A stretch of 18,753 nucleotides of DNA from a virus (Duplodnaviria > Heunggongvirae > Uroviricota > Caudoviricetes), in IMG/VR virus record IMGVR_UViG_2698536576_000004; one strand, written 5' to 3'. Position numbers and translations under genes: made by a program. Within the stretch, counting starts at the first letter, position 1. The number at the start of each line of letters is the position of its first letter. The notes beneath the pieces are model-generated. The model did no database searches and was not told the DNA's origin. It saw nothing but the letters and a program-made list of their open reading frames with translations. Shown here piece by piece: positions 1 through 15,039 of the stretch.

Positions 1-1
1 A

Positions 2-1297
2 TTAATTTTTCATTGCTTCGTTATGGGGCATGGTTGGGGCAAACTCGCTTAACTGTGTATTTAACAAAGCTACCTGTGCATTATTGTTTTCAGACATCCA
101 TTTTCCGTATACCTGAAATACCATTTGCGCATCTGCATGGCCCATCTGGTTTGCTATAAATGCCGGGTTAGCACCAGCTGTCAGCGACCAGCAGGCATAA
201 GTATGTCTCGACTGATATGATTTTCGATGGCGGAGTCCGGCACGTTTTATCGCTGCGTCCCACATCTGCCTTATTGAGTCAACGGTAAAATGGTCACCAT
301 AATTTTTTACTCTCGCTGATACTTCAGGTTGAAAAACAAAGGTGCATTTTTGTTTTTCTGTTCTGCCATACTCTCTGAGGTGAACATCAATGATATGCTC
401 TTTGCTCAGTCTCGTTAATGTCATCTGACTCCGGAGAGCGTCGATTGCTGGCTTAATAAGATGAATGACCCGATTGGTTCCCGCCTGTGTTTTTGGTACC
501 GTGAAACGGTCTTTTGCTAAATTTCTCCTGATCATCATTGTTCCATTTTTCAGATCTATGTCCTCCCATCCAAGTGCACACAGCTCACCAGGGCGAACGC
601 CAGTATAAACAGAAACACACCATAAATTTTTTGCTTGCTGATTTCTGCACGCATCGATAAGACGGATAAATTCCTCCCGCGAAAGAGGATCCGGAATGGT
701 TCTTGATTCCTTTAATGGCGAGATCCCCTTAAACGGATTATCTGCCAGGTAACCGTTATCAACACCAAACTGGAACACGGCGTTAAGATTTGTCATGTAA
801 TTATTTACAGTTACAGCCGATCTCCCTGGTTGTGTAACAATATAGTTACTTTTGGGGATCTGGTATCCAGTCAGTAGCTCTTTACGAACCTCCAGTAATT
901 TTTCTTTATTAATCGATGAGGCAAGATTTTTTTCACCGATTATGCTTAGGATATTTTTGATGACGGCACGGTATGTGTTGAGTGATGTTTTGGCGACTTC
1001 AGTTTCTTTCAGTGCCAGAAATTTTTCAGCCAGTTCTTTTATGGTTAAATCTTGTCGGGCCTCACCAAATTTTTCCAGATTGCGTGAGGAGGGAAACTGT
1101 TTTGCATAGTCGAAAACACCAGTTTTTATTGCGTAACAAACAGAGGAGCGTAGTTCACCTGCAACGCGCCTGTTTTTTGCTGTGTCAGGAACCCCCAGAT
1201 TTTCCCTGACTCTTACGCCTTTATAAACAAACCAGATACGTAATTTCCCTCCATGGTTTTCCACGCCTGTCGGATATTTCATTTCAACTTCTCTCAT
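2..1297 (-). CDS. int: Phage tyrosine integrase (lambdoid IntR/IntQ-like site-specific recombinase)
   Basis: 431-aa ORF. N-terminal 'YPTGVENHGGKLRIWFVYKGVRVRENLG' and C-terminal catalytic region 'RHTYACWSLTAGANPAFIANQMGHADAQMVFQVYGKW' (R..H..Y tyrosine-recombinase signature) resemble the Rac/Qin-type integrase as I remember it. Stop codon at 2-4, so attP/attL lies just outside the window. Confidence 0.9.
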   Translation of the reverse strand: MREVEMKYPTGVENHGGKLRIWFVYKGVRVRENLGVPDTAKNRRVAGELRSSVCYAIKTGVFDYAKQFPSSRNLEKFGEARQDLTIKELAEKFLALKETEVAKTSLNTYRAVIKNILSIIGEKNLASSINKEKLLEVRKELLTGYQIPKSNYIVTQPGRSAVTVNNYMTNLNAVFQFGVDNGYLADNPFKGISPLKESRTIPDPLSREEFIRLIDACRNQQAKNLWCVSVYTGVRPGELCALGWEDIDLKNGTMMIRRNLAKDRFTVPKTQAGTNRVIHLIKPAIDALRSQMTLTRLSKEHIIDVHLREYGRTEKQKCTFVFQPEVSARVKNYGDHFTVDSIRQMWDAAIKRAGLRHRKSYQSRHTYACWSLTAGANPAFIANQMGHADAQMVFQVYGKWMSENNNAQVALLNTQLSEFAPTMPHNEAMKN

Positions 1298-1316
1298 TAG
1301 TTAGTGTGGCTTTTAG

Positions 1317-1568
1317 TCAAGTAAGATGACGTCTTGGTCTCGCTGATGCCTGGCGCTCAATCCAGCGATCAATTTCTTCCAGGTTGTAAAAGCATGGACT
1401 GTTATCCCATGGCATACCGTCATGAGCGACATGCTTATATTCCCTTCCTTCCATAAACGATTTTTCCCGGGCCTTTTTTAACGTACCTTTTTTTATTCCT
1501 TTCAGCGCAATTAACTGCTCTTCGGATACCCATTTGCCGGGAGAGACAATCATGATTACTTCGCTCAT
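1317..1568 (-). CDS. xis: Excisionase-like protein (DUF1233-type Xis)
   Basis: 83-aa ORF directly upstream of int on the same strand, the canonical xis position. Small basic protein. Exact start uncertain (alternative Met at residue 6). Confidence 0.65.
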   Translation of the reverse strand: MSEVIMIVSPGKWVSEEQLIALKGIKKGTLKKAREKSFMEGREYKHVAHDGMPWDNSPCFYNLEEIDRWIERQASARPRRHLT

Positions 1569-1640
1569 CGATTTCTTTATCTCTTACATCAGACGAGCGC
1601 CGGTTGCAGAATACCAGTCACAACCGGCGACAGTTGAACA

Positions 1641-4112
1641 TTAAGAATCAGCCTGACTCGGGATCAGTTTTTGCCAGATAACTGAAACGTATTTTGCCTG
1701 GTAACGGGCGTCATCAAGTGCATTATGGCGCTCACCTTCGAATGGAATAGCCGTTCTGGCATCGAAGTCTATGGCTTTCCCCAGCTCAACGATTGTGCGT
1801 ACATCGCGATCGTTGTAGTAACGCCACGGGCAGGGGATCCCCTGCCGTTCGTATGAACGGCGCAAAATCGTGTTGTCGAAGTTGGCTCCATTTCCCCAGA
1901 CCTGAACAAAAAATTCACCGGAGTTTTCGTCGATAAATTCCCGCAATTGTAACAGTGCATCATCTAACGGGATTTCATCGGTCATAATGGCAGATTGCGC
2001 TTCGCGTGATTGCTTAAGCCACCATTTAATGGTGTCCCGATCAATGACTCCGCCAGCAGTTTCCAGATCGATAGTCTTACTAAATTCCGGTCCCATATCT
2101 CCGGTTTGCGGATCGAAAAATATTGCACCTATTGAGATGATCGGGGCATCAGGATTTTTTCCCATGGTTTCAAGGTCGATCATTAGATGGTCACACGTCC
2201 TGCTGGTGGATGTGATTTCGTGATGACCGTTCACCTTAATTGAGTGATCTGCCGTCTCGCCAGTTTCATTATCGCTATCGTGATGCTGATTGCCGCCAGT
2301 GTTCTCCTTGTGTGGATGTTCAGCGCCTTCCATTTCCTTCGGATCATCTTCCTGAACTTCAACCTGATACTCTTCATCGAATGTTTCCTGGTATGTTGCG
2401 TCGCCCATCACCGCGCCACAATCAGGGCAGTTGTCGCCGCCGGTCTGACCGCAGGCGGTGCAGACTTTTTCCACTTCCTGTTGCGCCACTGGTTCAGGCT
2501 GTTTCGTTTCTGGCTCGTTTTGTAACGCATTTGGGCTGTTTTGTTCCGCTTTTTGGTAGTTCCGTTCCGATTCATGCTGGTTCTGGTTCACAGAATCGCG
2601 GGTCTGGATCCCCTTAACCCATTTCGGATCATTCGGGTCACTAATCCCTTCAACAAATTCACCACGTGATGCAGCAAGCAACTTATCGGCGTCAGGCTGG
2701 CTGATATTGGCTGCCTGCATAATTTTGTTTACTTCGTTAGCGGTAACTTTTATCGGTTCTGGTTGTTCTGAATCTTCAGCGGTATCTACATTTTGCGGTA
2801 AGCCCGTGTATGTGCCATTTTTTCGGGCAAAATATTCTTCTTTAGTGATTTCAGTGGCGCCAGCAGCCAGTGCCTTATCCAGACCAGAAAGTTTGTTTGC
2901 GCGACCGTATTTTTCTCCGTCCTTATCTGCGAAGAGGAAATAGAACGGCCCCTCACGCTCTACAGATGGTTCAGCTTCCGGCGCGGTTTCATTTTTTGGG
3001 ATATCAGATACCTCAGTTTCCACTGCATCAGTTTGTGTTTCTGATGACTGGAGAACATCAACAGTGCCCAGGTCTGTTTCTTCATTCTCAAACACGCCCT
3101 TTGTCGTCAGGTATTCGCAGATATATTTGTTCAGTGCTACGGGTTCTTTGTGAATGTCGATCGGACGCTCACGGACAAGGCCAAAAATAGTTTGGCGGTC
3201 GTAGCGAAGGGCATCAGGCTGTTTGCGCATTGATGCCGAGATACGCTTCCAGTCTTCGCGGTCGTTGTCGATAACTTCTTTTTTTGCCCAGCGATGGATG
3301 CTGCCGTCAATGTTTCCGGCATCCACATCACCAGGCCAGAGAGCGTAGGCCAGTTCGTCATCCAGTGTTTTCCATGTCTGCTTGTATTCGCGATGAATGG
3401 CAGCAATGACCGGGCTGATTTTTCCTGTTGAATTTTCAGTGTACTGTTGATTGGCTCTGGTGCGGGCGAGATCAACAACAGACGTGTATTTTCCGGTTTC
3501 CTTGCGTTCACCTTCGCGACGTTTTTTCCAGATGCGCATCTCTGCCTGAATTTCGGGCCATTTAGCACCAGGAATACATTTATGCTTAACCCACCCAATG
3601 GCGTGCAACTTAAGCTCCGGATACATGGCGTTAACTTCTGGCATTTTCATCAACGCTTCAACGATATGTCCGTCGAATGTTGCCATGTCTTCCTGCAACA
3701 ATTCCTGTGCGCTAATAACCATATCAACGGTGATGTTTTCACATGTGTCGAACTTAACCATGACAGCGTTCTGTACTTCAGGGGCCAGCTTGTCAAAAGT
3801 GACGTTCATCGGATCGGATTTAGTCTCAACCGGGACAAAAGAAGCAGACTCCTCATCCCAGCGGTTTTCCTGCATATATTCAGCATCCCATGAATCGAGG
3901 GCAGGGCGGGGTATGCCAGGTTTATCCTCGCAGACAATAAATTTATAAGCGCAGTCCTGAGCAGCCGTATAATGTTCCAGGAACTGCCAGTGAAATTTTG
4001 CTCGAGCACGGCGTTCGTCGCCAGCTTCAATGGCTGTGGCTACAGCCACAGCGCCTTCTTCCCTTGTTGCCAGTTCGTCAGGAATAGCGGCGCAAATAAA
4101 GACTTTACTCAT
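1641..4112 (-). CDS. Phage exonuclease, 823 aa; C-terminal DnaQ/DEDDh-like 3'-5' exonuclease domain (often annotated 'exodeoxyribonuclease VIII-like')
   Basis: C-terminal ~190 aa carry 'MIDLETMG...' (Exo I motif D-x-E) and a distal 'HNALDDARY' (Exo III H-x4-D). Central Cys4 ribbon 'CTACGQTGGDNCPDCG' and a long acidic/Gln-Pro-rich linker. SD-like GAGG 9 nt upstream of ATG at 4112. Confidence 0.8.
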   Translation of the reverse strand: MSKVFICAAIPDELATREEGAVAVATAIEAGDERRARAKFHWQFLEHYTAAQDCAYKFIVCEDKPGIPRPALDSWDAEYMQENRWDEESASFVPVETKSDPMNVTFDKLAPEVQNAVMVKFDTCENITVDMVISAQELLQEDMATFDGHIVEALMKMPEVNAMYPELKLHAIGWVKHKCIPGAKWPEIQAEMRIWKKRREGERKETGKYTSVVDLARTRANQQYTENSTGKISPVIAAIHREYKQTWKTLDDELAYALWPGDVDAGNIDGSIHRWAKKEVIDNDREDWKRISASMRKQPDALRYDRQTIFGLVRERPIDIHKEPVALNKYICEYLTTKGVFENEETDLGTVDVLQSSETQTDAVETEVSDIPKNETAPEAEPSVEREGPFYFLFADKDGEKYGRANKLSGLDKALAAGATEITKEEYFARKNGTYTGLPQNVDTAEDSEQPEPIKVTANEVNKIMQAANISQPDADKLLAASRGEFVEGISDPNDPKWVKGIQTRDSVNQNQHESERNYQKAEQNSPNALQNEPETKQPEPVAQQEVEKVCTACGQTGGDNCPDCGAVMGDATYQETFDEEYQVEVQEDDPKEMEGAEHPHKENTGGNQHHDSDNETGETADHSIKVNGHHEITSTSRTCDHLMIDLETMGKNPDAPIISIGAIFFDPQTGDMGPEFSKTIDLETAGGVIDRDTIKWWLKQSREAQSAIMTDEIPLDDALLQLREFIDENSGEFFVQVWGNGANFDNTILRRSYERQGIPCPWRYYNDRDVRTIVELGKAIDFDARTAIPFEGERHNALDDARYQAKYVSVIWQKLIPSQADS

Positions 4113-4205
4113 TTTGTTTTAACCTCATGACAGATTTAAGGATGAACAAATCCCTGCCATTGCTGGCATATAAGAATGAAACCGGATATTTATTACGGAA
4201 CTGTT

Positions 4206-4397
4206 TTAAAGACCTGCCGGGATTTCGATATTATCCTGGTGAATAACTTTATCGACCGGGTAACAGTTACCGGGAATTTTCTGTTCGGTTGCTGCAGTCA
4301 TACACTCCTGCATTGTCCTGTGAACACTGACTGCAATATCAACTGGCTCTCCGGAAACAAGAAAAACTGTCAGAACAAGCGCAAATGCTGAATTCAT
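4206..4397 (-). CDS. ydfD: YdfD-like small protein with N-terminal hydrophobic/signal-like segment (Qin lysis-associated protein family)
   Basis: 63-aa product starting 'MNSAFALVLTVFLVSGEPV...'. SD AAGGA 8 nt upstream of ATG (4395-4397). ATGA overlap with the dicB stop suggests translational coupling. Length and position match K-12 ydfD as recalled. Confidence 0.7.
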   Translation of the reverse strand: MNSAFALVLTVFLVSGEPVDIAVSVHRTMQECMTAATEQKIPGNCYPVDKVIHQDNIEIPAGL

Positions 4398-4582
4398 TGT
4401 GCACATCCTTTTGGCATCAGACGTAAACGAGCCAGCATTGAAACAATGCATATTTTATTTAATAGCTCCCGTTCTTGTTTTCTCTTGTTAATGGCATCTT
4501 CAGTAAATACAGGGTTACTGATAGAGACACCAATTTCAAAACAACCTTCAGACGTATTAACGTTTGGTAATAACGTTTTCAT
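4394..4582 (-). CDS. dicB: DicB cell-division inhibitor (MinC-activating), 62 aa
   Basis: 'MKTLLPNVNTSEGCFEIGV...MPKGCAQ', 62 aa, matches my recollection of DicB in length and sequence. SD GAGGA 8 nt upstream of ATG at 4580-4582. Lies ~170 bp downstream of DicF, as in Qin. Confidence 0.8.
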   Translation of the reverse strand: MKTLLPNVNTSEGCFEIGVSISNPVFTEDAINKRKQERELLNKICIVSMLARLRLMPKGCAQ

Positions 4583-4750
4583 TATCGCGTCCTCAACAAT
4601 GAATTTTGTGATGCAGTGCCTGGTGCCTCCAGGTGACGTTAACCAGTTAACAATTAACGCCGGATACAGAGAATCCACCCATAACACTGTTTTTGGTTTT
4701 AACTGTTCCGCGTGCGCTTAGCCGCATTCACCGCATCACAAAATTCACTT

Positions 4751-4809
4751 TAAAAACGGCGGCAGAGCAGTCACGGAGTAAAACTGATACCGCCAAACGT
4801 CACCAGAAA
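4751..4809 (-). ncRNA. dicF: DicF small RNA (ftsZ-targeting sRNA of the dicB operon) with intrinsic terminator hairpin
   Basis: Minus strand reads 5'-TTTCTGGTGACGTTTGGCGGTATCAGTTTTACTCCGTGACTGCTCTGCCGCCGTTTTT-3', essentially identical to the DicF sequence as I remember it, including the GGCGG...GCCGCC stem and U-run. Ends approximate to +/-3 nt. Confidence 0.85.
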
Positions 4810-5085
4810 ATTGATAACAGAGGGCGTTGCAGCGGGGTTGTCACTTAAGCGTATGGTCAACCTGACAACTCGGTGTCCTCAACGGGGAAGGAATAACCCC
4901 GCCATACTTACCGCCGCGCCATTTCGCGGTTTGCCACAACCGGAAGCGCACGGTCGAATTAAATTTAACGACACCGTACAGTGAGACGAACTTCGCCGTG
5001 CGCTTTCGTGTTGTGTGCCTGCTTTTAACCACGTCAGGCGAGGTGGTATCCTTCTTATCCCGAATAACCAAGAAGGAAATCTATA

Positions 5086-5285
5086 TGACTAAAGAAGAAT
5101 TTGTCTCTTATATTTTTGATAAAACGGTTGAAATGTATGCCGCTACTTACGGGTCCTGTAATCCTCTGAATAAACCAGAGGGGAAAGATGATTTCGACAA
5201 AATTTACCGCTTCTTGGAGGACCGCTATATCAAAAGGTTAGAGGACGCAGGGATCAAATCCCCAGTGAAGTCACCATTGTCCTGA
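5086..5285 (+). CDS. Hypothetical 66-aa protein, antisense-oriented within the leftward early operon
   Basis: ATG at 5086 preceded by AAGGAA with ~7-nt spacing. Product 'MTKEEFVSYIFDKTVEMYAATYG...' has globular-like composition. Overlaps the 3' end of the minus-strand ydfB/C-region ORF by ~30 bp. No homolog recognised. Confidence 0.3.
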
Positions 5286-5631
5286 GAACTTGCAGGACGT
5301 CATGATCGTAACTTCCATCCAAACCGCGACGGCAAATTGCTTCTCGTATTACCGGAAGCAGTTCGCTGGAAATCTCGGTGCATATTTCACCTGCTAATAC
5401 GCCTGGCTCAAGTGAGAATATTGGTGAACTTACGGTCTTGGTCTCGACAGTTTCAGAGTCAGTGCCAACATTATAAAGCTCAACGAAAGCGGTCTTGATT
5501 TTCCGGGCCAGATCTTTTGCTGGCTCGCTTGCAATATCTTTCCCGATTTCTCGCAGCACAGAATGCAATGTATGAGCTGCTGTTTTCTGTACATCAGACG
5601 GTAAATCTTTAAATTCCATCGTCAGCCTCAT
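5254..5631 (-). CDS. Hypothetical early-operon protein (occupies the ydfB/ydfC position of Qin)
   Basis: 125-aa ORF. The ATG at 5629-5631 overlaps the upstream gene stop (TGATG). A second ATG at 5617-5619 has GAGG 9 nt upstream. Same strand and operon as dicA/ydfA/dicB. Confidence 0.55.
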   Translation of the reverse strand: MRLTMEFKDLPSDVQKTAAHTLHSVLREIGKDIASEPAKDLARKIKTAFVELYNVGTDSETVETKTVSSPIFSLEPGVLAGEICTEISSELLPVIREAICRRGLDGSYDHDVLQVLRTMVTSLGI

Positions 5632-5783
5632 CAGTCAGTGTTTCTGGCTAACCAGCAACGCGCGCCAGATTCGGTTTTAAACGTTTTGCTTTTGGTATAT
5701 GTCATCGCGGTGAACGTACCGTCCTGGTTGGGGAACACGCCACATACCAGAGATTCGCTGTTGCCAAGATCGATAGTATCCAT
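5631..5783 (-). CDS. ydfA: YdfA-like small protein (50 aa)
   Basis: 'MDTIDLGNSESLVCGVFPNQDGTFTAMTYTKSKTFKTESGARCWLARNTD'. GAGG 6 nt upstream of ATG at 5781-5783. Size and position (first gene after the operator downstream of dicA) match ydfA. Confidence 0.7.
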   Translation of the reverse strand: MDTIDLGNSESLVCGVFPNQDGTFTAMTYTKSKTFKTESGARCWLARNTD

Positions 5784-5896
5784 GCTGACCTCATTTCCCC
5801 TTAACGCCGGGGTAGCGGAACTGTTTGCTGAGAACACCGTGCGGTGTGTTGATGGAGGTAATTTAGTTTTCTCATTATTTTTCGTCAAGGTTTTTT

Positions 5897-5918
5897 GATG
5901 AGAAAACTCAAGTATTGG
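5897..5918. promoter_or_regulatory. Putative DicA operator at the early-left (dicB operon) promoter
   Basis: 'TGAGAAAACTCAAgTATTGG' is a near-identical copy of the motif in the dicA/dicC intergenic region (6435-6453). Core TTGAG-N4-CTCAA is palindromic. Lies between the dicA stop and the ydfA start. Confidence 0.5.
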
Positions 5919-5975
5919 CGCAAGATAAAGCCAATACATTGAAATGTAAGGCTTTAAAATTTTGTGAAGGGATGA

Positions 5976-6383
5976 TTATTGATGCTTGTTGCGTTTGCGA
6001 GCCTCTAATAGCTCGGTGAACAGGCGATTAAAATTCTCAACGCGGGCGCGGAGTTCGCTGAGTTGTGCTTGTTGCTCTGATTTAGGAAGTGCGCGATACA
6101 AACGCAGCATCTCTAACTCATCTTCCGATAAGTCTAAGGCACTATCGAGTGAAACAGGGGGAGCTGGTGTTTTGTCCTCGTCGCCAAACAGTATCCAGGT
6201 TGGTGAACATTGCAATACCTCGGCGAGGCGATGCAAATTTTGCCCGCGCGGGGCTGTATGGTCACTTTCCCATAATGAAATTGATGAGCCAGATACGCCA
6301 GCAGCTTTGCTTAAACCGTTTTGACTTAAGCCTACCTGCTTACGTCTTTCTCTAATGCGTTGACCTAAAGTTTTCTCGTTCAT
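5976..6383 (-). CDS. dicA: DicA-like HTH (XRE family) prophage repressor
   Basis: 135-aa product from ATG 6381-6383. The '...LQCSPTWILFGDEDK...' block and C-terminal '...RARVENFNRLFTELLEARKRNK' match DicA as recalled. HTH region 'GLSQNGLSKAAGVSGSSISLWE'. An upstream in-frame ATG at 6432-6434 is also possible. Confidence 0.85.
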   Translation of the reverse strand: MNEKTLGQRIRERRKQVGLSQNGLSKAAGVSGSSISLWESDHTAPRGQNLHRLAEVLQCSPTWILFGDEDKTPAPPVSLDSALDLSEDELEMLRLYRALPKSEQQAQLSELRARVENFNRLFTELLEARKRNKHQ

Positions 6384-6404
6384 ATTTAGATATCTTAATA
6401 ACCC

Positions 6405-6453
6405 TTGACTTGAGATTCCTTGAGTGATTAGCATTGAGAAAACTCAATATTGG
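6405..6453. promoter_or_regulatory. Divergent dicA/dicC control region: candidate dicC promoter plus DicA operator
   Basis: TTGACT (6405-6410), 17-bp spacer, TTAGCA (6428-6433) as a weak -10. Palindrome TTGAGAAAACTCAA at 6434-6447 plus additional TTGAG half-sites at 6409-6425. Confidence 0.45.
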
Positions 6454-6460
6454 AGGTGCG

Positions 6461-6688
6461 ATGTTTAAATCAGACGTAATTAATTTTTACGGTACGAAAG
6501 CCAAAGTAGCGAAAGCTGCTGGCGTTGACCCATCTGCTGTTTCTCAATGGCAAGAGCTGGTTCCTGAAGGTCGCGCGATGCGTCTACAGGAGGCATCTGG
6601 CGGCGAGCTTCTGTATGATCCCAAGGTTTATGACGAATATCGTAAGACGAAGCGGGCGGGGCGGTTGAACAATGAAAATCACTCCTGA
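6461..6688 (+). CDS. dicC: DicC-like Cro-type regulator (YdaS/DicC family)
   Basis: 75-aa product from ATG 6461 with GGAGG SD. C-terminal '...LVPEGRAMRLQEASGGEL.YDPKVYDEYRKTKRAGRLNNENHS' matches DicC as recalled. Divergent from dicA. Confidence 0.8.
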   Translation: MFKSDVINFYGTKAKVAKAAGVDPSAVSQWQELVPEGRAMRLQEASGGELLYDPKVYDEYRKTKRAGRLNNENHS

Positions 6689-7193
6689 ACAGGCTCGTGA
6701 GGCTCTGGATGCTTGGATATGTCGACCAGGAATGACACAGGAGCAGGCGACGATATTAATCACTGAAGCATTCTGGGCTTTGAAAGAGCGCCCGAACATC
6801 GATGTTCAGCGTGTCACAGATGAAGGTGGCGCGGTTGATCAGCGAGCGCTTGGCGTTAATCGAGTGAAGATATTCGAACGCTGGAAGGCTATCGACACCA
6901 GGGATAAGCGTGAAAAGTTCACGGCGCTAGTGCCTGCAATTATGGAGGCTATCCGGATTAATGATTTCAGGTTGTATCGTGAAATTAGTGACGGAAAAAG
7001 CATCACGTACATGATCGCCGGGTTAAACAAAGAATATGGCGATGTGGTGGAGTCCGGACTGCTTTTTGCTGATCCTGCCGTAGTGGATCGTGAAACTGAC
7101 GAACTTATAGAAAAAGCAATTGCTTTCAAACTTGCGTATCGACAGCAATACCAACAAAAAGCTGGATGGAATTATGAGCCTTCTTTTTGCTGA
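6672..7193 (+). CDS. YdaT-like protein (functional CII-position protein of Rac/CP-933P-type prophages)
   Basis: 173-aa ORF overlapping the dicC 3' end by 17 nt. Position right after the Cro-like gene and loose similarity to YdaT; assignment from memory, moderate. Confidence 0.55.
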   Translation: MKITPEQAREALDAWICRPGMTQEQATILITEAFWALKERPNIDVQRVTDEGGAVDQRALGVNRVKIFERWKAIDTRDKREKFTALVPAIMEAIRINDFRLYREISDGKSITYMIAGLNKEYGDVVESGLLFADPAVVDRETDELIEKAIAFKLAYRQQYQQKAGWNYEPSFC

Positions 7194-8139
7194 ACGCCCA
7201 CTGGTTATAAACACACAGCTTGCGATGAAGATTGGCTTAAATGAAGCCATTGTGTTGCAGCAGTTGCATTACTGGTTGAGAGATACCAATTCCGGCATGG
7301 AATGTGATGGTGTTCGCTGGATTTACAACACAACGGAACAATGGCTGGAACAGTTCCCATTCTGGTCAGAGTCAACGTTAAAGCGCGCGTTTGCAAGTCT
7401 GAAAACGCTGGGGCTTTTGCGTTGTGAAAAGCTCAATAAATCAAAGCGCGATATGACCAATTTCTACACGATTAACTATGGGAGCGAGCTTTTAGATGAT
7501 GGCAAATTGAGCGAATCCATCGGTTCAAAATGCGCCGCTCCATCAGGTCAAAATGACACGATGGAAGAGGTCAAAATGAAACGCTCCATTGGTTCAAAAC
7601 GACCCAATGTCATCGGGTCAAAATGGCCTGATGATCTTACAGAGAATACAACAGAGATTACTACAGAGAATAAAAACACTTTTCGTCCGGAAGCTTCGCA
7701 ATCGGACCCGCAGACAGCTGAACAGAATTATTTAACCCAATATCCTGACGCGGTGGTTTTCAGTGCTAACAAACGTCAGTGGGGGAATCAGGAGGATTTG
7801 GCGTGTGCGCAATGGATCTGGGCACGAATCGTGAGCCTTTACGAACAGGCCGCCAGTGATGATGGCGAGATCATGCGACCAAAAGAGCCTAACTGGACTG
7901 CCTGGGCTAATGACGTGCGCACAATGCGGATGCTGGATGGCAGAAGCCATAAACAAATTTGCGAAATGTTTGGTCGGGTTCAGCGAGATCCATTCTGGGT
8001 AAAAAACATCATGAGCCCTTCAAAGCTCCGCGAAAAATGGGATGAACTGGTCATTCGCCTGGGGCGTTCACCTGTACAGCGTTGTGTGAATCATATTTCT
8101 GAGCCGGACAGCGAAATTCCACCGGGATTCAGGGGGTAG
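7174..8139 (+). CDS. Phage replication initiator/replisome organizer with DnaT-like C-terminal domain
   Basis: N-terminal wHTH-like 'LVINTQLAMKIGLNEAIVLQQLHYWL'. C-terminus '...ISEPDSEIPPGFRG' closely resembles the E. coli DnaT (primosomal protein I) C-terminus as recalled. Contains an internal iteron array. Start at ATG 7174 chosen; the ORF is open from 7120 (TTG). Confidence 0.8.
   Translation: MSLLFAERPLVINTQLAMKIGLNEAIVLQQLHYWLRDTNSGMECDGVRWIYNTTEQWLEQFPFWSESTLKRAFASLKTLGLLRCEKLNKSKRDMTNFYTINYGSELLDDGKLSESIGSKCAAPSGQNDTMEEVKMKRSIGSKRPNVIGSKWPDDLTENTTEITTENKNTFRPEASQSDPQTAEQNYLTQYPDAVVFSANKRQWGNQEDLACAQWIWARIVSLYEQAASDDGEIMRPKEPNWTAWANDVRTMRMLDGRSHKQICEMFGRVQRDPFWVKNIMSPSKLREKWDELVIRLGRSPVQRCVNHISEPDSEIPPGFRG
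7522..7626. repeat. Iteron-like direct repeats (GG(T)TCAAAA(T)G x5, 22-26 bp period) inside the replication gene; putative ori
   Basis: Copies at 7522, 7546, 7569, 7591 and 7617, followed by an A/T-rich segment with ACAGAGA(A/T)TA x3 (7640-7675). Architecture parallels ori-lambda inside gene O. Gives the protein its repeated 'IGSK' motif. Confidence 0.6.
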
Positions 8140-8141
8140 GT

Positions 8142-8354
8142 ATGCACAGCAGTAATCAACAGGCCGCAATCCAGCATTTGCTGGAGAACGGGGAAGCCAC
8201 GTTCCGGGAGCTGGCTGATGCTCTTGGTGTGACCAACAAGAAAATTCAAAACCTGCTCCAGAACATACAGCGGTACGGGCAGCTTGTGCGGGAGGGGAAA
8301 AAATATCGGCTGGTACCGAACTGGCAGGAAAAATCTGCATTGCAAAAGCGGTAA
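8142..8354 (+). CDS. Hypothetical small protein, possible winged-helix DNA-binding fold
   Basis: 70-aa ORF. ATG at 8142 three nt after the replication-gene stop, with GGGGG/AGG SD. Sequence 'FRELADALGVTNKKIQNLLQNIQRYGQLVREGKKYRLV' looks HTH-like. Confidence 0.6.
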   Translation: MHSSNQQAAIQHLLENGEATFRELADALGVTNKKIQNLLQNIQRYGQLVREGKKYRLVPNWQEKSALQKR

Positions 8355-8603
8355 CCGAAAGGTCAACAGCGTCGAAACAGGCTGCGGCGCAGGAATGTCG
8401 CCGGAACAGCAACGGATACCAGAGACAAAAAATTTTGGGGAGTAGTCGGGGAGTCGGTAACAGAGCTTAGGTAGAGCAATTGATGCCAACTGACCTCTAA
8501 CGTTTTGTTTCATGTTGTCATTATGTTTCAATTTAGTGGAATTGTTAATAAAATGTTTTTATAATTAAAAACCAAACTACAGATAGCATGGAGCTTTTGT
8601 TCA

Positions 8604-10160
8604 ATGAATGCCTATAAATTCAGAAATAATGATGAGATTGGAAAATTAGAGGCGGAAACTGATTCTTATCTTGATGCTTGTTTTTATGAGTCCAATGTTT
8701 TTAAAGGTATTGTGAATTTTGACTCTACTGAGAAGAATCCTGATTTTACAAGAAGAATTATTGTTGGAAGAACAGGAAGCGGTAAGTCTGCGTTGCTTAA
8801 AAAAATATTAGACAAAGGAAATATTAAGCTGCATGACACAATAGAGGCAGAAAATACGATATTTGAACATATTAATAACAATGTGTTTATATCTGATTTG
8901 ATCTCGAAAGGGATAGATTTACGTGGGTTTTATAAATCGTTATGGCTGCATGTATTACTTATGAAAGTTATACCAGCCGTTTATCGTTCTTCCTATCAAA
9001 GCTTTTTTGAGGAAATTAAAGATCTTATTGGTGGTAAGAAGAAACCGTATAAACCAGAAGTTGCGAATGATTATATTGAACAATTTAAAGAAAATTTCTT
9101 CAATGATAAAGCGCTCATTGAAATAAGTAACAAGCTTGAAAGTGATTTGTCATTCAAACTCGGAAATTCCGCTGTTGGTGTGGGTGGTAAAATATCTAAT
9201 TCTGATACAGCCAAAATACAATCAGAAACTTCAAGTTATGTGAGTCGTGAACTTCTTTTTAAACAAAAAGAACTTATTAAAATACTTAAAGAGGAGTTCG
9301 CTGACTCAAACCAGGTTAGAATAGTAATCAGTATCGATGATTTAGATAAATCTTGGTTAAGCACGAGCGCCATCAGATATGACTTTATTAATGCTCTTCT
9401 TGAGGCCTTTCGAGAATTATTAGATATAAAGTCGGTTAAGGTTCTGATATCAATAAGAACAGATATTTTAATGGGAATTTATAAAAGTAGTTTAAGGCAG
9501 GATGAGAAAGATCAATCTTTAATATATTCCATATCATGGAATAAAACGGAAATAAGAGAGATTATTGATGCTAGAATTAACCATTTGGTTAAAAATAGAT
9601 ATCAATCAAATAAGTCTGTATTAATGAAGGATATTTTTAATTTTACAGTTGAAGGTATTGGAGCAGATGATTATATCCTTGACAGAACAATGCTTAGGCC
9701 TAGAGATGCAATTAATTTCGTAAATATATGTCTTTCTGAGTGCGATGGTATGGTTAACATGAATGAAAATATTGTGTTAATTGCCGAAGAGAAATTTTAT
9801 TCATCCAGAAAGAGAGCTTTGGTTACAGAATGGAAAAGCATATATCCGTTTATCGAAGAATATTTGGATGTGCTTTCCTTGATTTCATTTTCTGATTTTA
9901 CAGTCTCAAACATAGGACAAGCAGTAAAAGATGATATATCGCAGCATTTACTTGATAGATTGACTGTAGTTAAAGAGGATGATCAACATACAAAAATATT
10001 GATGAATTTTGAGGAGTTACTTAAAGTCTGGTTCGTCGTAGGCGTGGTTGGCATAAGGAAAACAGCATCTTTAATTATATATTCATCTTTTGATAAACCT
10101 AATTTGGATATTACTGATATGAAGAGAGATTTTGTAATACATCCGTTGTTTGATAGGTAA
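8604..10160 (+). CDS. P-loop NTPase, 518 aa, KAP-like Walker motifs; AT-rich cargo gene, candidate defense/abortive-infection protein
   Basis: Walker A 'GRTGSGKS' (nt 8766-8789). Walker B-like 'RIVISIDDLDK' (IDDLD at nt 9333-9347), resembling the KAP-family hhhhDDLDR. Possible Arg motif 'LRPRDAINF'. Markedly lower GC than flanking genes (by eye, not computed). Preceded by an AT-rich promoter-like region (8500-8600). Confidence 0.85.
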   Translation: MNAYKFRNNDEIGKLEAETDSYLDACFYESNVFKGIVNFDSTEKNPDFTRRIIVGRTGSGKSALLKKILDKGNIKLHDTIEAENTIFEHINNNVFISDLISKGIDLRGFYKSLWLHVLLMKVIPAVYRSSYQSFFEEIKDLIGGKKKPYKPEVANDYIEQFKENFFNDKALIEISNKLESDLSFKLGNSAVGVGGKISNSDTAKIQSETSSYVSRELLFKQKELIKILKEEFADSNQVRIVISIDDLDKSWLSTSAIRYDFINALLEAFRELLDIKSVKVLISIRTDILMGIYKSSLRQDEKDQSLIYSISWNKTEIREIIDARINHLVKNRYQSNKSVLMKDIFNFTVEGIGADDYILDRTMLRPRDAINFVNICLSECDGMVNMNENIVLIAEEKFYSSRKRALVTEWKSIYPFIEEYLDVLSLISFSDFTVSNIGQAVKDDISQHLLDRLTVVKEDDQHTKILMNFEELLKVWFVVGVVGIRKTASLIIYSSFDKPNLDITDMKRDFVIHPLFDR

Positions 10161-10390
10161 TAGCAATGTGAATATGTTGAGACTACTGGAAAAGCTATAA
10201 CTCCTTTAGTAAAGTTTCCGTGGGTGCTTGAGGCTATCTGTCTCAGGCATGAACACCAAAGGCAGATAGAGAAAAGCCCCAGTTAACATTACGCGTCCTG
10301 CAAGACGCTTAACATTAATCTGAGGCCAATTTCATGCTAGACACATGTAGGTTAGCCTCTTACGTGCCGAAAGGCAAGGAGAAGCAGGCT

Positions 10391-10546
10391 ATGAAGCAGC
10401 AAAAGGCGATGTTAATCGCCCTGATCGTCATCTGTTTAACCGTCATAGTGACGGCACTGGTAACGAGGAAAGACCTTTGCGAGGTACGAATCCGAACCGG
10501 CCAGACGGAGGTCGCTGTCTTCACAGCTTACGAACCTGAGGAGTAA
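10391..10546 (+). CDS. hokD: Hok/Gef-family membrane toxin (HokD/RelF-type)
   Basis: 'MKQQKAMLIALIVICLTVIVTALVTRKDLCEVRIRTGQTEVAVFTAYEPEE', 51 aa, matches HokD/RelF as recalled. SD AAGGAGAAG upstream. In-frame upstream extension from 10334 not annotated separately. Confidence 0.9.
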   Translation: MKQQKAMLIALIVICLTVIVTALVTRKDLCEVRIRTGQTEVAVFTAYEPEE

Positions 10547-10613
10547 GAGACCCGGCGAGGGAGAAATCCCTCGCCACCTCTGATGTGGCAGGCATCCTCA
10601 ACGCACTCGCACT

Positions 10614-10641
10614 TAACCCGCTTCGGCGGGTTTTTGTTTTT
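10614..10641 (+). terminator. Rho-independent terminator downstream of hok
   Basis: Stem CCCGC-TTCG-GCGGG (10617-10630) followed by TTTTTGTTTTT. An additional hairpin GCGAGGGA...TCCCTCGC at ~10553-10575 is typical of hok mRNA 3' structure. Confidence 0.7.
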
Positions 10642-10762
10642 ATTTTCAACGCGTTTGAAGTTCTGGACGGTGCCGGAATAGAATCAAAAATACTTAAGTA
10701 GCGCGCAGGGATAAGAGGGATGGTCCCTTAAAGGGGAGAGCTAATTATCCGGAAGGATTCTG

Positions 10763-11014
10763 ATGATGAACATCGAAGAACTGCGTAAAATTTTTTGTGA
10801 AGATGGCCTCTATGCTGTGTGCGTTGAAAATGGAAATCTTGTTAGTCATTACCGCATTATGTGTTTGCGAAAGAATGGGGCTGCGTTAATTAATTTTGTG
10901 GATGGTCGAGTGACAGACGGATTTATCTTGCGCGAAGGTGAGTTTGTCACTTCATTACAGGCACTGAAAGAGATCGGAATAAAAGCAGGCTTTTCAGCTT
11001 TTGCAGAAGAATAA
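10763..11014 (+). CDS. rem: Rem-like small prophage protein (function unknown)
   Basis: 83-aa ORF. GGAAGGA SD 5 nt upstream of ATG. Position immediately downstream of hokD matches Qin rem (83 aa); identity assigned from memory of gene order and size. Confidence 0.6.
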   Translation: MMNIEELRKIFCEDGLYAVCVENGNLVSHYRIMCLRKNGAALINFVDGRVTDGFILREGEFVTSLQALKEIGIKAGFSAFAEE

Positions 11015-11080
11015 ACTCATCTACAATCTTGCGCGGGGCTGAACTCCCGCTGAGTAACACCGTGCCACCGGAGAAAACCG

Positions 11081-11359
11081 ATGGCACGCAACGTAAAATA
11101 TTACAATTCTGATAATTCGCCCGTTCTTGCCTGCACGCACGGGCGGTATTCTCACGCATTCAAGTCTGAATGGTTCCAGCACCCTCCATGCACTGCAGAA
11201 CAGGCCGAATGGCTGATTCATTCTTACCGCAGGCGCGGGTTCGAGGTTAAGAAAGCTCTCAGTCTCGACTATCGGCACTGGATAATCTCTGTCAGGCTGC
11301 CTTATTCCGAACGCCCACCACGTGCGTCCCGCACTTTCCAGCAACGGATCTGGAGGTAA
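11081..11359 (+). CDS. Hypothetical 92-aa protein
   Basis: ATG at 11081 with GGAG 8 nt upstream. Its stop TAA (11357-11359) lies inside/next to the SD of the following GTG-start gene, suggesting translational coupling. Confidence 0.5.
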   Translation: MARNVKYYNSDNSPVLACTHGRYSHAFKSEWFQHPPCTAEQAEWLIHSYRRRGFEVKKALSLDYRHWIISVRLPYSERPPRASRTFQQRIWR

Positions 11360-11360
11360 C

Positions 11361-12410
11361 GTGCGGGTATTACTTAGACCTGTTCTGGTGCCTGAGCTTG
11401 GGCTGGTGGTCCTTAAGCCGGGCCGTGAATCCATACAGATATTTCATAATCCTCGAGTGCTGGTGGAACCGGAACCAAAAAGCATGCGTAATCTGCCATC
11501 CGGAGTCGTTCCTGCCGTTCGCCAGCCGCTGGCGGAAGACAAAACATTGCTGCCGTTTTTTAGTAACGAACGGGTGATTCGTGCTGCTGGCGGCGTTGGC
11601 GCATTGTCTGACTGGCTATTACGTCATGTTACATCCTGCCAGTGGCCTAATGGCGATTACCATCACACTGAAACAGTCATTCACCGTTATGGTACCGGCG
11701 CAATGGTGTTGTGCTGGCACTGCGACAACCAACTGCGTGACCAGACATCGGAATCACTGGAGCTGCTTGCTCAACAAAATCTGACAGCATGGGTGATTGA
11801 CGTCATCCGTCACGCAATAAGCGGTACGCAGGAGCGGGAATTATCTTTGGCTGAATTATCCTGGTGGGCGGTCTGCAATCAGGTGGTGGATGCACTACCT
11901 GAGGCTGTATCGCGTCGTTCGCTGGGATTACCAGCGGAAAAAATCTGCTCGGTGTACCGCGAAAGCGACATCGTACCGGGAGAGCAGACCGCCACCAGCA
12001 TATTGAAACAACGCACAAAAAATCTTGCACCGTTGCCTTACGCCCACCAGCAACAAAAACCACCACAGGAAAAGACGGTGGTAAGCATCAACGTTGATCC
12101 AGAGTCTCCGGAATCTTTCATGAAGCTGCCTAAACGTCGCCGCTGGGTTAAGGAGAAATACACTCGTTGGGTTAAGACACAGCCGTGTGCTTGCTGCGGT
12201 ATGCCAGCCGACGATCCGCATCATCTGATTGGTCACGGGCAGGGCGGAATGGGAACAAAAGCACATGATCTCTTTGTGTTGCCTTTGTGCAGAAAGCATC
12301 ACAACGAGCTGCATACGGATACAGTGGCATTTGAAGAGAAGTATGGCTCCCAACTGGAGCTGATATTTCGTTTTATCGATCGCGCGCTGGCAACTGGCGT
12401 ACTGGCGTAA
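11361..12410 (+). CDS. ydfU: DUF968-family prophage protein (YdfU-like) with C-terminal Cys/His-rich HNH-like motif
   Basis: 349-aa product if started at GTG 11361 (GGAGG 4 nt upstream). C-terminal 'CACCGMPADDPHHLIGHGQGGMGTKAHDLFVLPLCRKHHNELH'. Position between rem and Q as in Qin. The ORF is open from 11322. Confidence 0.7.
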   Translation: MRVLLRPVLVPELGLVVLKPGRESIQIFHNPRVLVEPEPKSMRNLPSGVVPAVRQPLAEDKTLLPFFSNERVIRAAGGVGALSDWLLRHVTSCQWPNGDYHHTETVIHRYGTGAMVLCWHCDNQLRDQTSESLELLAQQNLTAWVIDVIRHAISGTQERELSLAELSWWAVCNQVVDALPEAVSRRSLGLPAEKICSVYRESDIVPGEQTATSILKQRTKNLAPLPYAHQQQKPPQEKTVVSINVDPESPESFMKLPKRRRWVKEKYTRWVKTQPCACCGMPADDPHHLIGHGQGGMGTKAHDLFVLPLCRKHHNELHTDTVAFEEKYGSQLELIFRFIDRALATGVLA

Positions 12411-12423
12411 GTGGAGAACGAGC

Positions 12424-13176
12424 ATGAACCTTGAAGCCTTACCAAAATATTACTCCCCAAAATCTCCAAAATTGAGCGATGACGCTCCAGCGACAGGCAC
12501 CGGTTGTTTAACAATTACGGATGTAATGGCAGCGCAGGGGATGGTGCAGTCGAAAGCACCACTTGGGTTGGCCTTATTTCTGGCAAAAGTTGGTGTTCAG
12601 GACGCTCAGTTTGCGATTGAAGGCCTGCTAAATTACGCGATGGCACTGGATAACCCGACATTGAACAAATTGAGTGAAGAAATCCGGTTACAGATTATTC
12701 CTTACCTCGTGAATTTTGCCTTTGCTGATTACTCCAGGTCTGCGGCAAGTAAGGCTCGCTGTGAGCATTGTTCAGGTACGGGATTTTATAATGTATTGCG
12801 CGAAGTGGTGAAACACTACAGACGCGGGGAATCTGTAATCAAGGAAGAATGGGTGAAGGAACTATGTCAGCATTGCCATGGTAAGGGCGAAGTCAGCACA
12901 GCGTGCAGAGGGTGTAAGGGGAAAGGGATTGTTCTGGATGAAAAAAGAACCCGGTTTCATGGCGTACCGGTATATAAGATTTGTGGGCGTTGTAATGGAA
13001 ACCGGTTTAGTCGTTTACCGACCACGCTGGCACGACGTCATGTCCAGAAGCTGGTACCAGACCTGACCGATTATCAGTGGTATAAGGGGTATGCGGACGT
13101 CATTGGTAAACTGGTAACAAAGTGCTGGCAGGAAGAAGCATACGCGGAAGCGCAATTGAGGAAGGTGACGAGATAA
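12424..13176 (+). CDS. quuQ: Late-gene antitermination protein Q
   Basis: 250 aa. Cys-rich zinc-binding motifs 'CEHCSGTG', 'CQHCHGKGE', 'CRGCKGKG', 'CGRCNG'. GGAGA SD 7 nt upstream. Followed by a promoter/terminator pair typical of PR'/tR'. Confidence 0.85.
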
Positions 13177-13207
13177 ATGATTTTTGCTGAAGATGGCGAC
13201 ATGATGT

Positions 13208-13236
13208 TTGCATTTTTCAAAAAACATGGATAAGAT
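13208..13236 (+). promoter_or_regulatory. Candidate late promoter (PR'-like) downstream of Q
   Basis: TTGCAT (13208-13213), 17-bp spacer, TAAGAT (13231-13236). A qut-type Q-utilisation site would be expected to overlap. Inferred from position and hexamers only. Confidence 0.35.
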
Positions 13237-13282
13237 TTTCTCAACGATGGGCTTTGTGTATCCGACGTTTAGAAAAAAGTAG

Positions 13283-13307
13283 AAAACCCGCTTATAAGCG
13301 GGTTTTT
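13283..13307 (+). terminator. Intrinsic terminator (tR'-like), potentially bidirectional
   Basis: Perfect stem AAAACCCGCTT/AAGCGGGTTTT around a short loop, with an A-run upstream and T-run downstream. About 105 bp past the Q stop. Confidence 0.65.
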
Positions 13308-13655
13308 GTGCTTTAAATGGGGCAATAGAGATATTGAATCTCATCCCGGGATAAACATTGGCAGTTGAAGGTCCACGCGAACCATTTATCCAGCAAAATT
13401 CCACGCGTAATCCTGTGGTAATTTCTTCTGCATCTCGAAGATTGAGAGCTGAAACGTGAAGCTGGGCATCGATACGCCATCGGATGGGAATATAAGACCT
13501 TTGCTGCTTTTGTAGTCAAAGTTTTTGACAATTCCTGTCATTTTAGGGGACAGAAAAACTCCTTAATACTGATAACCGGGTGCACCATACACACGTTCCT
13601 GGAGAAAACTACTTTTTTGATAGGATTGAAGGTGGCTGGATGTCTAAAATAAACA

Positions 13656-13684
13656 TTGCTTCATATGTTCAACTATGAGTTAAT
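13656..13684 (+). promoter_or_regulatory. cspB-like promoter (TTGCTT-17-GTTAAT) preceding a ~160-nt cold-shock 5' UTR
   Basis: Same hexamer architecture as the promoter upstream of the second csp gene (16558-16586). UTR contains a GCCGAAAGGC element near the RBS, similar to the cspA-family 5' UTR. Confidence 0.45.
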
Positions 13685-13851
13685 GACTGCGTCGGTTTGA
13701 AGAACAGACGATATACGAAGTAGTTTACTAAAGCAGTTCTCATTTCAGGTGTTATTCACTTATTCCTTCTTTGAGTCTCTCCAATTAAGTACGAAGTCGT
13801 TTCTGTTATGCAAACCATTTATGCCGAAAGGCTCAAGTTAAGGAATGTAGA

Positions 13852-14348: not shown

Positions 14349-14371
14349 AAACCCGCTCAGGCGGGTTTTTT
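14349..14371 (+). terminator. Rho-independent terminator
   Basis: AAACCCGC-TCAG-GCGGGTTT followed by TTTTTATT. Lies ~280 nt downstream of cspB and ~60 nt beyond the 3' end of the convergent minus-strand zinc-ribbon gene. Confidence 0.7.
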
Positions 14372-15035: not shown

Positions 15036-15039
15036 TCCA

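Follow-up and report, generated by a model that had tools for sequence, protein, structure and literature searches.

An undamaged dicBF early-left operon in a probable mEp460-type, Qin-like lambdoid prophage of Escherichia coli

Background

In the Qin prophage of Escherichia coli K-12 MG1655 (b1569–b1579), dicC and dicA are followed by ydfA, then by dicF, dicB, ydfD and the N-terminus of an exonuclease, with ydfB and ydfC also present in the region. The operator of this prophage, Oc (TTGTTAGTCATAACTAACAA), has been defined experimentally (PMC3441716). Repression by DicA and the action of the antirepressor Rem have been described (PMC10448788), as has the processing of the small RNA DicF from its leader by RNases E and III (PMC10448788, PMC5069750), and the targets of DicF are reported in PMC5069750. 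The K-12 promoter dicBp is reported not to respond to mitomycin C and to be derepressed by Rem (PMC10448788). The same 2023 paper records that mEp460_ev081 carries dicB, dicF, dicAC and rem, states an analogy with phage lambda, and likens K-12 DicA to the Gifsy-type repressors (PMC10448788).

Here we compare these systems with a stretch of 18,753 nucleotides of viral DNA (IMG/VR record IMGVR_UViG_2698536576_000004), which as a whole we call the window. The region spanning positions 1–6700 is very probably the immunity switch and early-left operon (the equivalent of the lambda PL operon) of an mEp460-type, Qin-like lambdoid prophage of E. coli, and no sequence evidence against this reading was found. 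The gene order is that of K-12 Qin, and nine features, from dicA to int, all lie on the minus strand, spaced −4 to 445 nt apart. The assignment of the parts, their intactness, the layout of promoters and operators and the near-identity to functional phages were all computed here. Repression, RNA processing, read-through into the distal genes and the activities of the products are, in turn, suggested by the work on K-12 and by the lambda analogy.

DicF, dicB and ydfD

The DicF sRNA is found at positions 4757–4808 (minus strand); its terminator hairpin and U-run extend to about 4751. It matches Rfam RF00039 over the full model (1–52/52; 72.5 bits, gathering score 48, E = 1.4e-14) and is identical to K-12 dicF at 52 of 53 nucleotides. 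Positions 1–52 are the same; nucleotide 53 is changed from C to G (GCCGCCC to GCCGCCG), just 3′ of the terminator stem and outside the predicted stem, and the predicted hairpin is the same as that of K-12. Through nucleotide 52, the 5′ and 3′ target-pairing regions (as defined in PMC5069750) and the terminator hairpin are unchanged relative to the characterized K-12 RNA. The G at nucleotide 53 would be expected to leave pairing with ftsZ mRNA unaffected. A preliminary description of this DNA had called DicF essentially identical to that of K-12, and had named divergence at the seed or terminator as the finding that would overturn this. Both the Rfam search and the K-12 alignment bear the claim out, and no such divergence was seen.

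The sequence around DicF is conserved as well. The non-coding upstream leader (4809–5026, minus strand) falls within a block (3346–5026) that is 98% identical to K-12, and the leader and the spacer between DicF and dicB are 97–100% identical in the alignment. The conserved flanks reach 218 nt upstream of DicF and 174 nt downstream of it. One might take the sequence resembling DicF for a relic without function, or put the K-12-like gene order down to chance. We found nothing in support of either idea, and both are effectively ruled out by an Rfam score far above the gathering score, by the 52/53 identity within conserved flanks, and by an identical copy of the G variant in the phage HannyBb.

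Downstream of DicF, dicB (4394–4582, minus strand; 62 aa) encodes a member of the cell-division inhibitor family that is identical to K-12 DicB at 61 of 62 residues, with full-length matches to PF05358 (134.6 bits, cut-off 27) and NF049927 (130.4 bits, cut-off 100). It is followed by ydfD (4206–4397, minus strand), which encodes a protein of 63 aa in the lysis protein family DUF1482 (PF07358), 62 of them shared with K-12 YdfD. The two genes overlap by ATGA at 4394–4397, as had been reported and as can be read directly from the sequence: The TGA stop of dicB overlaps the ATG of ydfD, and the same 4-nt overlap occurs in K-12. The first gene of the leftward operon is ydfA-like (5631–5783, minus strand; 50 aa, DUF1391). 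Its product matches PF07151 and is identical to K-12 YdfA at 43 of 50 residues. Rfam, the K-12 alignment and family profiles thus place the minus-strand dicA, ydfA-like gene, DicF, dicB and ydfD at or near the positions first given for them.

The immunity region

The repressor gene (5976–6383, minus strand) encodes a 135-aa HTH_3 protein of the DicA family and the mEp460 immunity type. Against NCBIfam NF007257 it scores 239.4 bits over residues 1–135 of 135 (cut-off 101), and K-12 DicA itself scores 234.3. Its name in the preliminary description, dicA, therefore holds at the level of the family. It does not hold for the K-12 allele: only 73 of the 135 residues (~54%) are identical to K-12 DicA, the N-terminal helix-turn-helix region has diverged, and the operators are different. 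Pfam gives helix-turn-helix families alone for this protein, and the S24 peptidase (cleavage) domain is absent. Divergent from the repressor gene, across an intergenic region of 77 bp, is a gene for a Cro-like regulator of the DicC family (6461–6688, plus strand; 75 aa; Pfam P22_Cro, PF14549). It matches NF007282 over its full length (165.3 bits, cut-off 130) and is 70% identical to K-12 DicC, again with a diverged N-terminus.

The leftward operon appears to start from a putative equivalent of dicBp (5860–5910, minus strand), for which the promoter scan gave a −35 hexamer TTGACG (5888–5883) and a −10 hexamer TAAATT (5865–5860). This site is bracketed by two candidate operator copies (repeats D1 and I1), one exact at 5899–5910 and one with a single mismatch at 5863–5874. 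On the other side, a promoter-like site directed rightward toward dicC (6405–6448, plus strand; TTGACT, an 18-nt spacer, TAGCAT) is followed by a candidate inverted-repeat operator, ATTGAGAAAACTCAAT, at 6433–6448, which is 13–28 nt upstream of the dicC start. Allowing at most one mismatch, the operator motif occurs three times in the whole window, where 0.18 matches are expected, and all three lie in the immunity region at the two promoters. We assign these sites as candidate operators from the repeats and their position. It should be noted that the consensus promoter and terminator scans were, overall, not above shuffled expectation.

K-12 carries operator-like repeats of its own at the aligned positions, and its promoter hexamers are likewise in the same places. 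With respect to dicC, the candidate ATTGAGAAAACTCAAT is placed just as Oc is in K-12, although the two sequences differ. The recognition region of the repressor is not that of K-12 DicA, and the candidate operators are of the TGAGAAAACTCA type. With just 54% identity to K-12 DicA, and with candidate operators of its own (TGAGAAAACTCA) at the places of the K-12 ones, the repressor is, as judged from sequence, a heteroimmune DicA of an immunity type other than that of K-12.

The module between ydfA and DicF

Where K-12 has ydfB and ydfC, the window has a 613-bp module that consists of ORF121 (5254–5619, minus strand; 121 aa) and the convergent ORF66 (5085–5285, plus strand; 66 aa), which shares 32 nt with the 3′ end of ORF121. 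By blastn, positions 5027–5639 have no match in K-12 DNA. Neither protein is similar to YdfB or YdfC, and blastp with ORF121 returned nothing even at E = 100. The preliminary description had placed a "ydfB/C-region ORF" here, but at both the DNA and the protein level ORF121 is unrelated to ydfB or ydfC, and this assignment is excluded. The only matches for the two proteins are PHROG families of unknown function (phrog_33007 over residues 1–121/121 of ORF121, and phrog_34441 over 1–66/66 of ORF66); searches of Pfam, PADLOC and PDB sequences gave nothing significant.

The convergent plus-strand gene inside the operon had been overlooked in the preliminary description. ORF66 is annotated in LH85-a (WP_000159335.1) and in mEp460_ev081; it is common to the window and this phage and absent from K-12. 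A comparison of the window with mEp460_ev081 for coding selection on ORF66 is uninformative because there is not one nucleotide difference in the gene. Given its position between ORF121 and the DicF leader and its convergent orientation, ORF66 could interfere with leftward transcription. That it is an independently expressed unit, colliding with or antisense to the leftward operon, is a speculative and rather improbable idea; if true, it would mean that the amounts of DicF, DicB, Xis and Int are gated at this point.

The exonuclease–xis–int arm

K-12 aligns with the window at 1–1161 (intQ) and at 3346–5026 (ydfE to dicF). It lacks positions 1162–3345, in whose place is a 706-bp remnant of IS2E, which confirms the earlier statement that the K-12 arm was truncated by IS2. 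In the window, as had also been claimed, dicB and ydfD are followed on the same strand by an intact exonuclease, xis and int, each a single uninterrupted frame with a profile match over essentially its full length (Pfam/PHROG). Frameshifts in int or xis had been named as a possible objection; none was found there or in any other gene of the left arm.

The exonuclease (1641–4112, minus strand; 823 aa) matches phrog_2082 over residues 1–822 of 823 and Pfam PF16473 with 226.6 bits, the latter reflecting a C-terminal DEDDh 3′–5′ exonuclease domain (Rv2179c-like) at residues 642–813. By tblastn, K-12 ydfE corresponds to residues 1–256 only. The excisionase gene xis (1317–1568, minus strand; 83 aa; Pfam DUF1233, 1–69/70; phrog_539) is absent from K-12. 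The tyrosine integrase (2–1282, minus strand; 426 aa, with an alternative start at 1297; Pfam Arm-DNA-bind_2 and Phage_integrase, PHROG integrase) includes the part encoded by 1162–1282, which K-12 intQ lacks. K-12 Qin is a decayed copy of this arrangement, from which the IS2 event took the C-terminus of the exonuclease, xis and the start of int. The description of the window as a more complete version of the K-12 element is apt in the sense that its Qin left arm is fuller, while its DicF, dicB and ydfD are near-identical to those of K-12.

Between ydfD and int, no terminator signal exceeded shuffled expectation. The scan cannot decide whether the transcript is continuous because its counts equal the shuffled expectation and it fails to flag even the DicF terminator. 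It is important to note that the intrinsic terminator of DicF must be read through for dicB, the exonuclease, xis and int to be expressed.

Comparison with phages and other switches

A close relative is the functional phage mEp460_ev081 (LR597641), which is collinear with the window over 1–8132 at 96.3% identity and covers 100% of 1–6700. It shares int, xis, the exonuclease gene, ydfD, dicB, DicF, ORF66, ORF121, ydfA, the repressor gene and the Cro-like gene. The window and this phage agree at 100% in the repressor, the Cro-like protein, Xis, YdfA, ORF66 and Rem, and the phage Int is 99.3% identical (aa); the phage exonuclease (88% aa) and DicB (85%) are more diverged. HannyBb (PP925841) covers 91% of 1–6700 at 99.3% and has a different gene in the slot between ydfA and DicF; its Xis and Rem are 100% identical and its Int 99.8% identical to those of the window. 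PhiR42_1 (PV340562) and Tritos (OV696610) are further phage relatives. The genomes of mEp460_ev081 and its relatives are complete and include head and tail genes, whereas the window ends in IS2. Farther to the right, the place of K-12 relBE, flxA and ydfV is taken in the window by replication genes and a gene for a P-loop ATPase (8604–10160), the product of which had no PADLOC match and only a subthreshold NCBIfam match to an anti-phage family.

The layout is functionally analogous to the PL operon and CI/Cro switch of lambda. In both, the genes for the repressor and for Cro diverge, operators (candidates in the window) cover the two early promoters, and the leftward operon carries small host-modifying genes and a nuclease, followed distally by xis and int next to att. 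Unlike in lambda, the repressor is short and without a RecA-cleavable S24 domain, a DEDDh 3′–5′ exonuclease fusion takes the place of lambda Exo, the operon includes an sRNA (DicF), and neither an N homologue nor any N-like antiterminator was identified. A short, HTH-only repressor (135 aa here) combined with a prophage antirepressor (Rem here) also recalls the Gifsy-type GfoR/GfoA systems of Salmonella, from which the window differs in having no exact LexA box.

Rem and the trigger of induction

The gene rem (10763–11014, plus strand; 83 aa) was recognized by homology, and its function as the antirepressor of DicA is taken from K-12 (PMC10448788). The protein is 96.4% identical to K-12 Rem. 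No exact LexA box (CTGTN8ACAG) occurs anywhere in the window; boxes with one mismatch number nine against 5.7 expected, which is not above chance, and none is upstream of rem. This search therefore lends no support to SOS control. Because the repressor has no S24 domain and K-12 dicBp is reported to be unresponsive (PMC10448788), mitomycin C may be the wrong trigger for induction here.

A model of the operon

Based on K-12 Qin, we propose that the short repressor would bind inverted-repeat operators of 12–14 bp with the core TGAGAAAACTCA, one ahead of dicC, the divergent Cro-like gene, and two flanking the leftward promoter's −35 and −10 elements, and that the bound repressor would keep the operon off in the lysogen. 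Derepression would come from the element's own antirepressor Rem, from a spontaneous DicA/DicC switch, or from heat or urea, as in K-12 Qin. A single leftward transcript would then run through ydfA, ORF121 and the structured leader, from which RNase E, RNase III and DicF's own terminator would release DicF, presumably to block translation of ftsZ, xylR and pykA. Transcripts reading through the terminator would reach dicB (MinC-dependent division block, phage exclusion) and ydfD, and may go on to the 3′–5′ exonuclease, xis and int.

Live phage or domesticated remnant

A fully active temperate phage, inducible and competent for excision and plaque formation, is an unlikely reading of this element, even though several observations point that way. 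Int, Xis, the repressor, the Cro-like protein and Rem share 99–100% identity with their counterparts in plaque-forming phages, no gene of the left arm has a frameshift, and phages with the same arm have already been isolated (PMC10448788). However, IS2 begins at 18281, exactly where phage homology ends, and cuts a small gene, and compared with K-12, cspF has decayed. The att sites lie outside the window, whose start is one base past the stop codon of int; the att core is ~50 nt beyond the window start (identity between phage attP and LH85-a attL begins ~52 nt out). LH85-a, the only genome that is 100% identical (over 1–18280), has a prophage with IS1 in an Rz-like gene and IS2 in a tail-fibre gene; among complete genomes, none matched the full window with its IS2 junction. 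In LH85-a, int adjoins rspB, as in K-12, and the attL region (outside the window) is 98.7% identical to K-12, but the right end adjoins sitABCD/ompN rather than ydfJ, and this junction is non-cognate.

Somewhat less doubtful, though still not the reading we favor, is that the arm is a domesticated remnant kept for DicF and DicB (division control, metabolism, phage exclusion), with int, xis and the exonuclease as incidental survivors. Such a view was proposed earlier for K-12 Qin, and dicBF loci do occur in clearly defective prophages (PMC5069750). They are kept in most E. coli (4759 of 5426 complete genomes match the 4100–6700 stretch), and the decay of cspF and the IS insertions elsewhere in the element would fit as well. 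Yet 80% or more of the int–xis–exonuclease arm is matched in 2242 of the same 5426 genomes, and the arm is near-identical to that of live phages; this frequency and near-identity fit a recent phage origin or ongoing phage function, not long domestication.

Implications

Read as an mEp460-type early-left operon, the arrangement is one that has already been described, and it is ordinary and common; it is undamaged in this window and occurs in live phages too. The window can serve as a clean picture of K-12 Qin as it was before the IS2 event deleted the distal left arm. It also places dicBF in the early-left operon that live lambdoid phages carry, and shows that DicA-type switches exist in several immunity types, with operators exchanged at fixed positions. 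Genome annotations, phage genomes in the databases and the 2016–2023 dicBF literature already provide these three points, which carry little weight as discovery. Should ORF66 prove to be an independent unit, it would, together with the heteroimmune DicA and its operators, make up a layer of dicBF control in the mEp460-type element that is missing from K-12 Qin. For work on DicF and DicB in a natural isolate, induction is likelier to be achieved through Rem or heat than through the SOS response.

Organization of the left arm and comparison with K-12 Qin

The locus is the intact early-left arm of a mEp460/Qin-type lambdoid prophage, and its parts, intactness, and layout could be observed directly in this analysis. 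Nine co-directional features occupy the minus strand from 6383 down to 2, with −4 to 445 nt between neighbors: a 135-aa helix-turn-helix repressor (5976–6383), a 50-aa DUF1391 protein (YdfA-like; 5631–5783), a 121-aa ORF (ORF121; 5254–5619), DicF (4757–4808; Rfam, 72.5 bits vs. a gathering score of 48), dicB (4394–4582), ydfD (4206–4397), an 823-aa exonuclease (1641–4112), an 83-aa excisionase (1317–1568), and a 426-aa integrase (2–1282). The Cro-like gene dicC (6461–6688) is divergent from the repressor gene. The dicB stop and ydfD start share ATGA at 4394–4397, as is directly visible in the sequence, and the same overlap occurs in K-12. Because the nine features, the Rfam match, and the overlap were all found, the gene set and order reported in the preliminary description are confirmed; it read a well-known locus accurately and with care.

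In Qin, the cryptic prophage of Escherichia coli K-12 MG1655, intQ aligns to window positions 1–1161 (99.5%), ydfE, ydfD, dicB, dicF, and 218 nt of leader to 3346–5026 (98%), ydfA with its transcribed leader to 5640–5854 (91%), and the 3′ part of dicC plus ydfX to 6560–6951. The region 1162–3345 is replaced in K-12 by a 706-bp IS2E remnant, and K-12 therefore keeps only ydfE (residues 1–256 of the exonuclease encoded here) and a 5′-truncated intQ, with no xis. As had been proposed, the arm runs on into exonuclease, xis, and int here, whereas its K-12 counterpart is broken. DicF is identical to that of K-12 at 52 of 53 nt; the exception is the last base (G here, C in K-12), positioned immediately beyond the predicted terminator stem, and the two RNAs are predicted to fold alike. 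At the protein level, identity to K-12 is 61/62 residues for DicB, 62/63 for YdfD, and 43/50 for YdfA. The right arm of K-12 is truncated as its left arm is, given that ydfX (96 aa; 19347–19637 of the K-12 reference locus) corresponds to the N-terminal 93 residues of a 173-aa YdaT-family (CII-like) protein for which the window has an intact gene (6672–7193, plus strand).

The claim that ORF121 is a ydfB/C-region ORF did not hold: it has no similarity to YdfB or YdfC, and window positions 5027–5639 have no counterpart in K-12. The same module contains, on the opposite strand and convergent with the dicBF operon, a 66-aa ORF (ORF66; 5085–5285, plus strand) that shares 32 nt with the 3′ end of ORF121. 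Both ORFs are annotated in LH85-a, the complete E. coli genome closest to the window, and in Escherichia phage mEp460_ev081, and each matches a full-length PHROG family of unknown function (phrog_34441 for ORF66). ORF66 is preceded by a good AAGGA ribosome-binding site, and no consensus promoter was found upstream of it. It is absent from K-12 and from phage HannyBb, which has yet another gene in this slot; the slot is thus a variable accessory position. The convergent ORF66 inside the operon is the only loose end of the locus.

Immunity type and regulation

The repressor belongs to the DicA family (NCBIfam NF007257, 239 bits vs. a cut-off of 101), but it is only 54% identical to K-12 DicA, with the differences gathered in the N-terminal DNA-binding half; the N-terminal part of DicC differs likewise. 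Three copies of the 12-mer TGAGAAAACTCA, counted with up to one mismatch, are present in the 18.7-kb window, where 0.18 would be expected, and all of them fall in the immunity region. One candidate operator (6435–6446) lies within a 16-nt inverted repeat, ATTGAGAAAACTCAAT, situated 13–28 nt upstream of the dicC start and directly after a promoter-like site (TTGACT-18-TAGCAT). The other two (5899–5910 and 5863–5874) flank a promoter-like TTGACG-17-TAAATT on the minus strand, upstream of ydfA. At the aligned positions, K-12 has repeats of other sequence (TGTTAGTCATAACTAA and related), and the site before its dicC has been defined by experiment as the DicA operator Oc, TTGTTAGTCATAACTAACAA (PMC3441716). 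A diverged repressor N terminus together with distinct repeats at the K-12 operator positions argues that the repressor's recognition half and its operators were swapped jointly, apparently with promoter geometry kept; lambdoid elements of different immunity types usually differ in this way. Control of the operon by a DicA-type protein, as originally suggested, is therefore well supported, but we infer that the controller is a heteroimmune DicA.

A perfect 14-nt inverted repeat, ACGCCAGCAGCTTT / AAAGCTGCTGGCGT, is also present, at 6295–6308 in dicA and 6512–6525 in dicC. The helix-turn-helix regions of the two proteins share K-A-A-G-V, written with the same codons in both genes, and the repeat is probably a by-product of this common motif, not a site.

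Homology to K-12 Qin and the parallel with lambda PL suggest that the DicA-type repressor would hold the leftward promoter off and that derepression would yield a polycistronic leftward transcript. After presumed RNA processing, read-through would express dicB and ydfD, and then exonuclease, xis, and int. In K-12, derepression has been shown with the Rem antirepressor, through a spontaneous DicA/DicC switch, and on exposure to heat or urea, whereas mitomycin C is reported not to trigger it (PMC10448788). The window carries rem (10763–11014; 96% identical to the K-12 copy). Given this K-12 result, a repressor with no S24 cleavage domain, and no exact LexA box anywhere in the window, mitomycin C, suggested in the preliminary description, may not be the right inducer.

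Other loci in the window

At 8604–10160 (plus strand), in a stretch of 30%–32% GC, the window encodes a 518-aa P-loop ATPase assigned to the Sll1717 family (NCBIfam, 180 bits), with the replication genes on one side and hokD on the other. Related prophages have DUF4209, AIPR, KwaB-like, or RelA/SpoT-domain proteins at this position, and K-12 has relBE, flxA, and ydfV; it looks like a variable defense-gene slot. PADLOC gave no hit for the ATPase, and its match to an NCBIfam anti-phage model fell below threshold. A hok/sok type I toxin–antitoxin locus follows (10222–10546, plus strand; Rfam sok, 118 bits at 10222–10396), conserved with K-12 Qin but without the adjacent relBE; hokD is annotated at the equivalent position in LH85-a. 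Two cspA-type thermoregulator 5′ leaders (RF01766; 13691–14083, 158.8 bits, and 16592–16977, 112.8 bits, both plus strand) span cspB and cspI, cold-shock genes of the prophage. In the identical LH85-a sequence, cspF, which lies between them, is annotated as a frameshifted fragment, and bases 14059–14316 of the K-12 reference locus are missing from the window.

Prophage ends and the LH85-a rearrangement

From their sequences, Int and Xis look functional. The window starts one base past the int stop codon, and the identity between phage attP and bacterial attL begins about 52 nt beyond the window start, i.e., outside it. On the opposite side of the window, homology to LH85-a, mEp460_ev081, and HannyBb ends exactly at 18280, and an IS2 end (18281–18753, the terminal 473 nt; 96% to K-12 IS2E) closes the window, interrupting a small conserved gene (18094–18321, plus strand) at its 3′ end.

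LH85-a (NZ_CP100486.1, 2471800–2516100) is the only genome identical over 1–18280. Its prophage has IS1 in an Rz-like gene and IS2 in a tail-fiber gene, and the tail-fiber genes are split. The left end adjoins rspB, as in K-12, but the right end adjoins sitABCD/uspF/ompN (the neighborhood of the Rac site in K-12) and not ydfJ. The insertions and this junction indicate that the prophage is rearranged, which suggests inversion or recombination between two lambdoid prophages.

Distribution in phages and E. coli

Window positions 1–6700 match 79 phage records, with 100% coverage at 96.3% identity in mEp460_ev081, 91% at 99.3% in HannyBb, and about 80% coverage in PhiR42_1 and Tritos; the DicF–dicB segment is covered to at least 80% in 20 records. 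Compared with mEp460_ev081, identity is 100% for the repressor, the DicC-like protein, Xis, YdfA, ORF66, and Rem and 99.3% for Int. The mEp460_ev081 and HannyBb records both include complete modules for head and tail. The idea of a complete, functional Qin relative has already been published by Ragunathan et al., updating a 2016 statement that no sequenced phage had DicB or DicF (PMC5069750).

Among 5426 complete E. coli genomes, some part of 4100–6700 was matched in 4759, and at least 80% of it was covered in 176, representing the immunity and module combination of the window. The int–xis–exo arm was covered to at least 80% in 2242. Based on these counts, the intact arm is the common state in E. 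coli and K-12 the decayed one. This left arm is also present in deposited functional phages.
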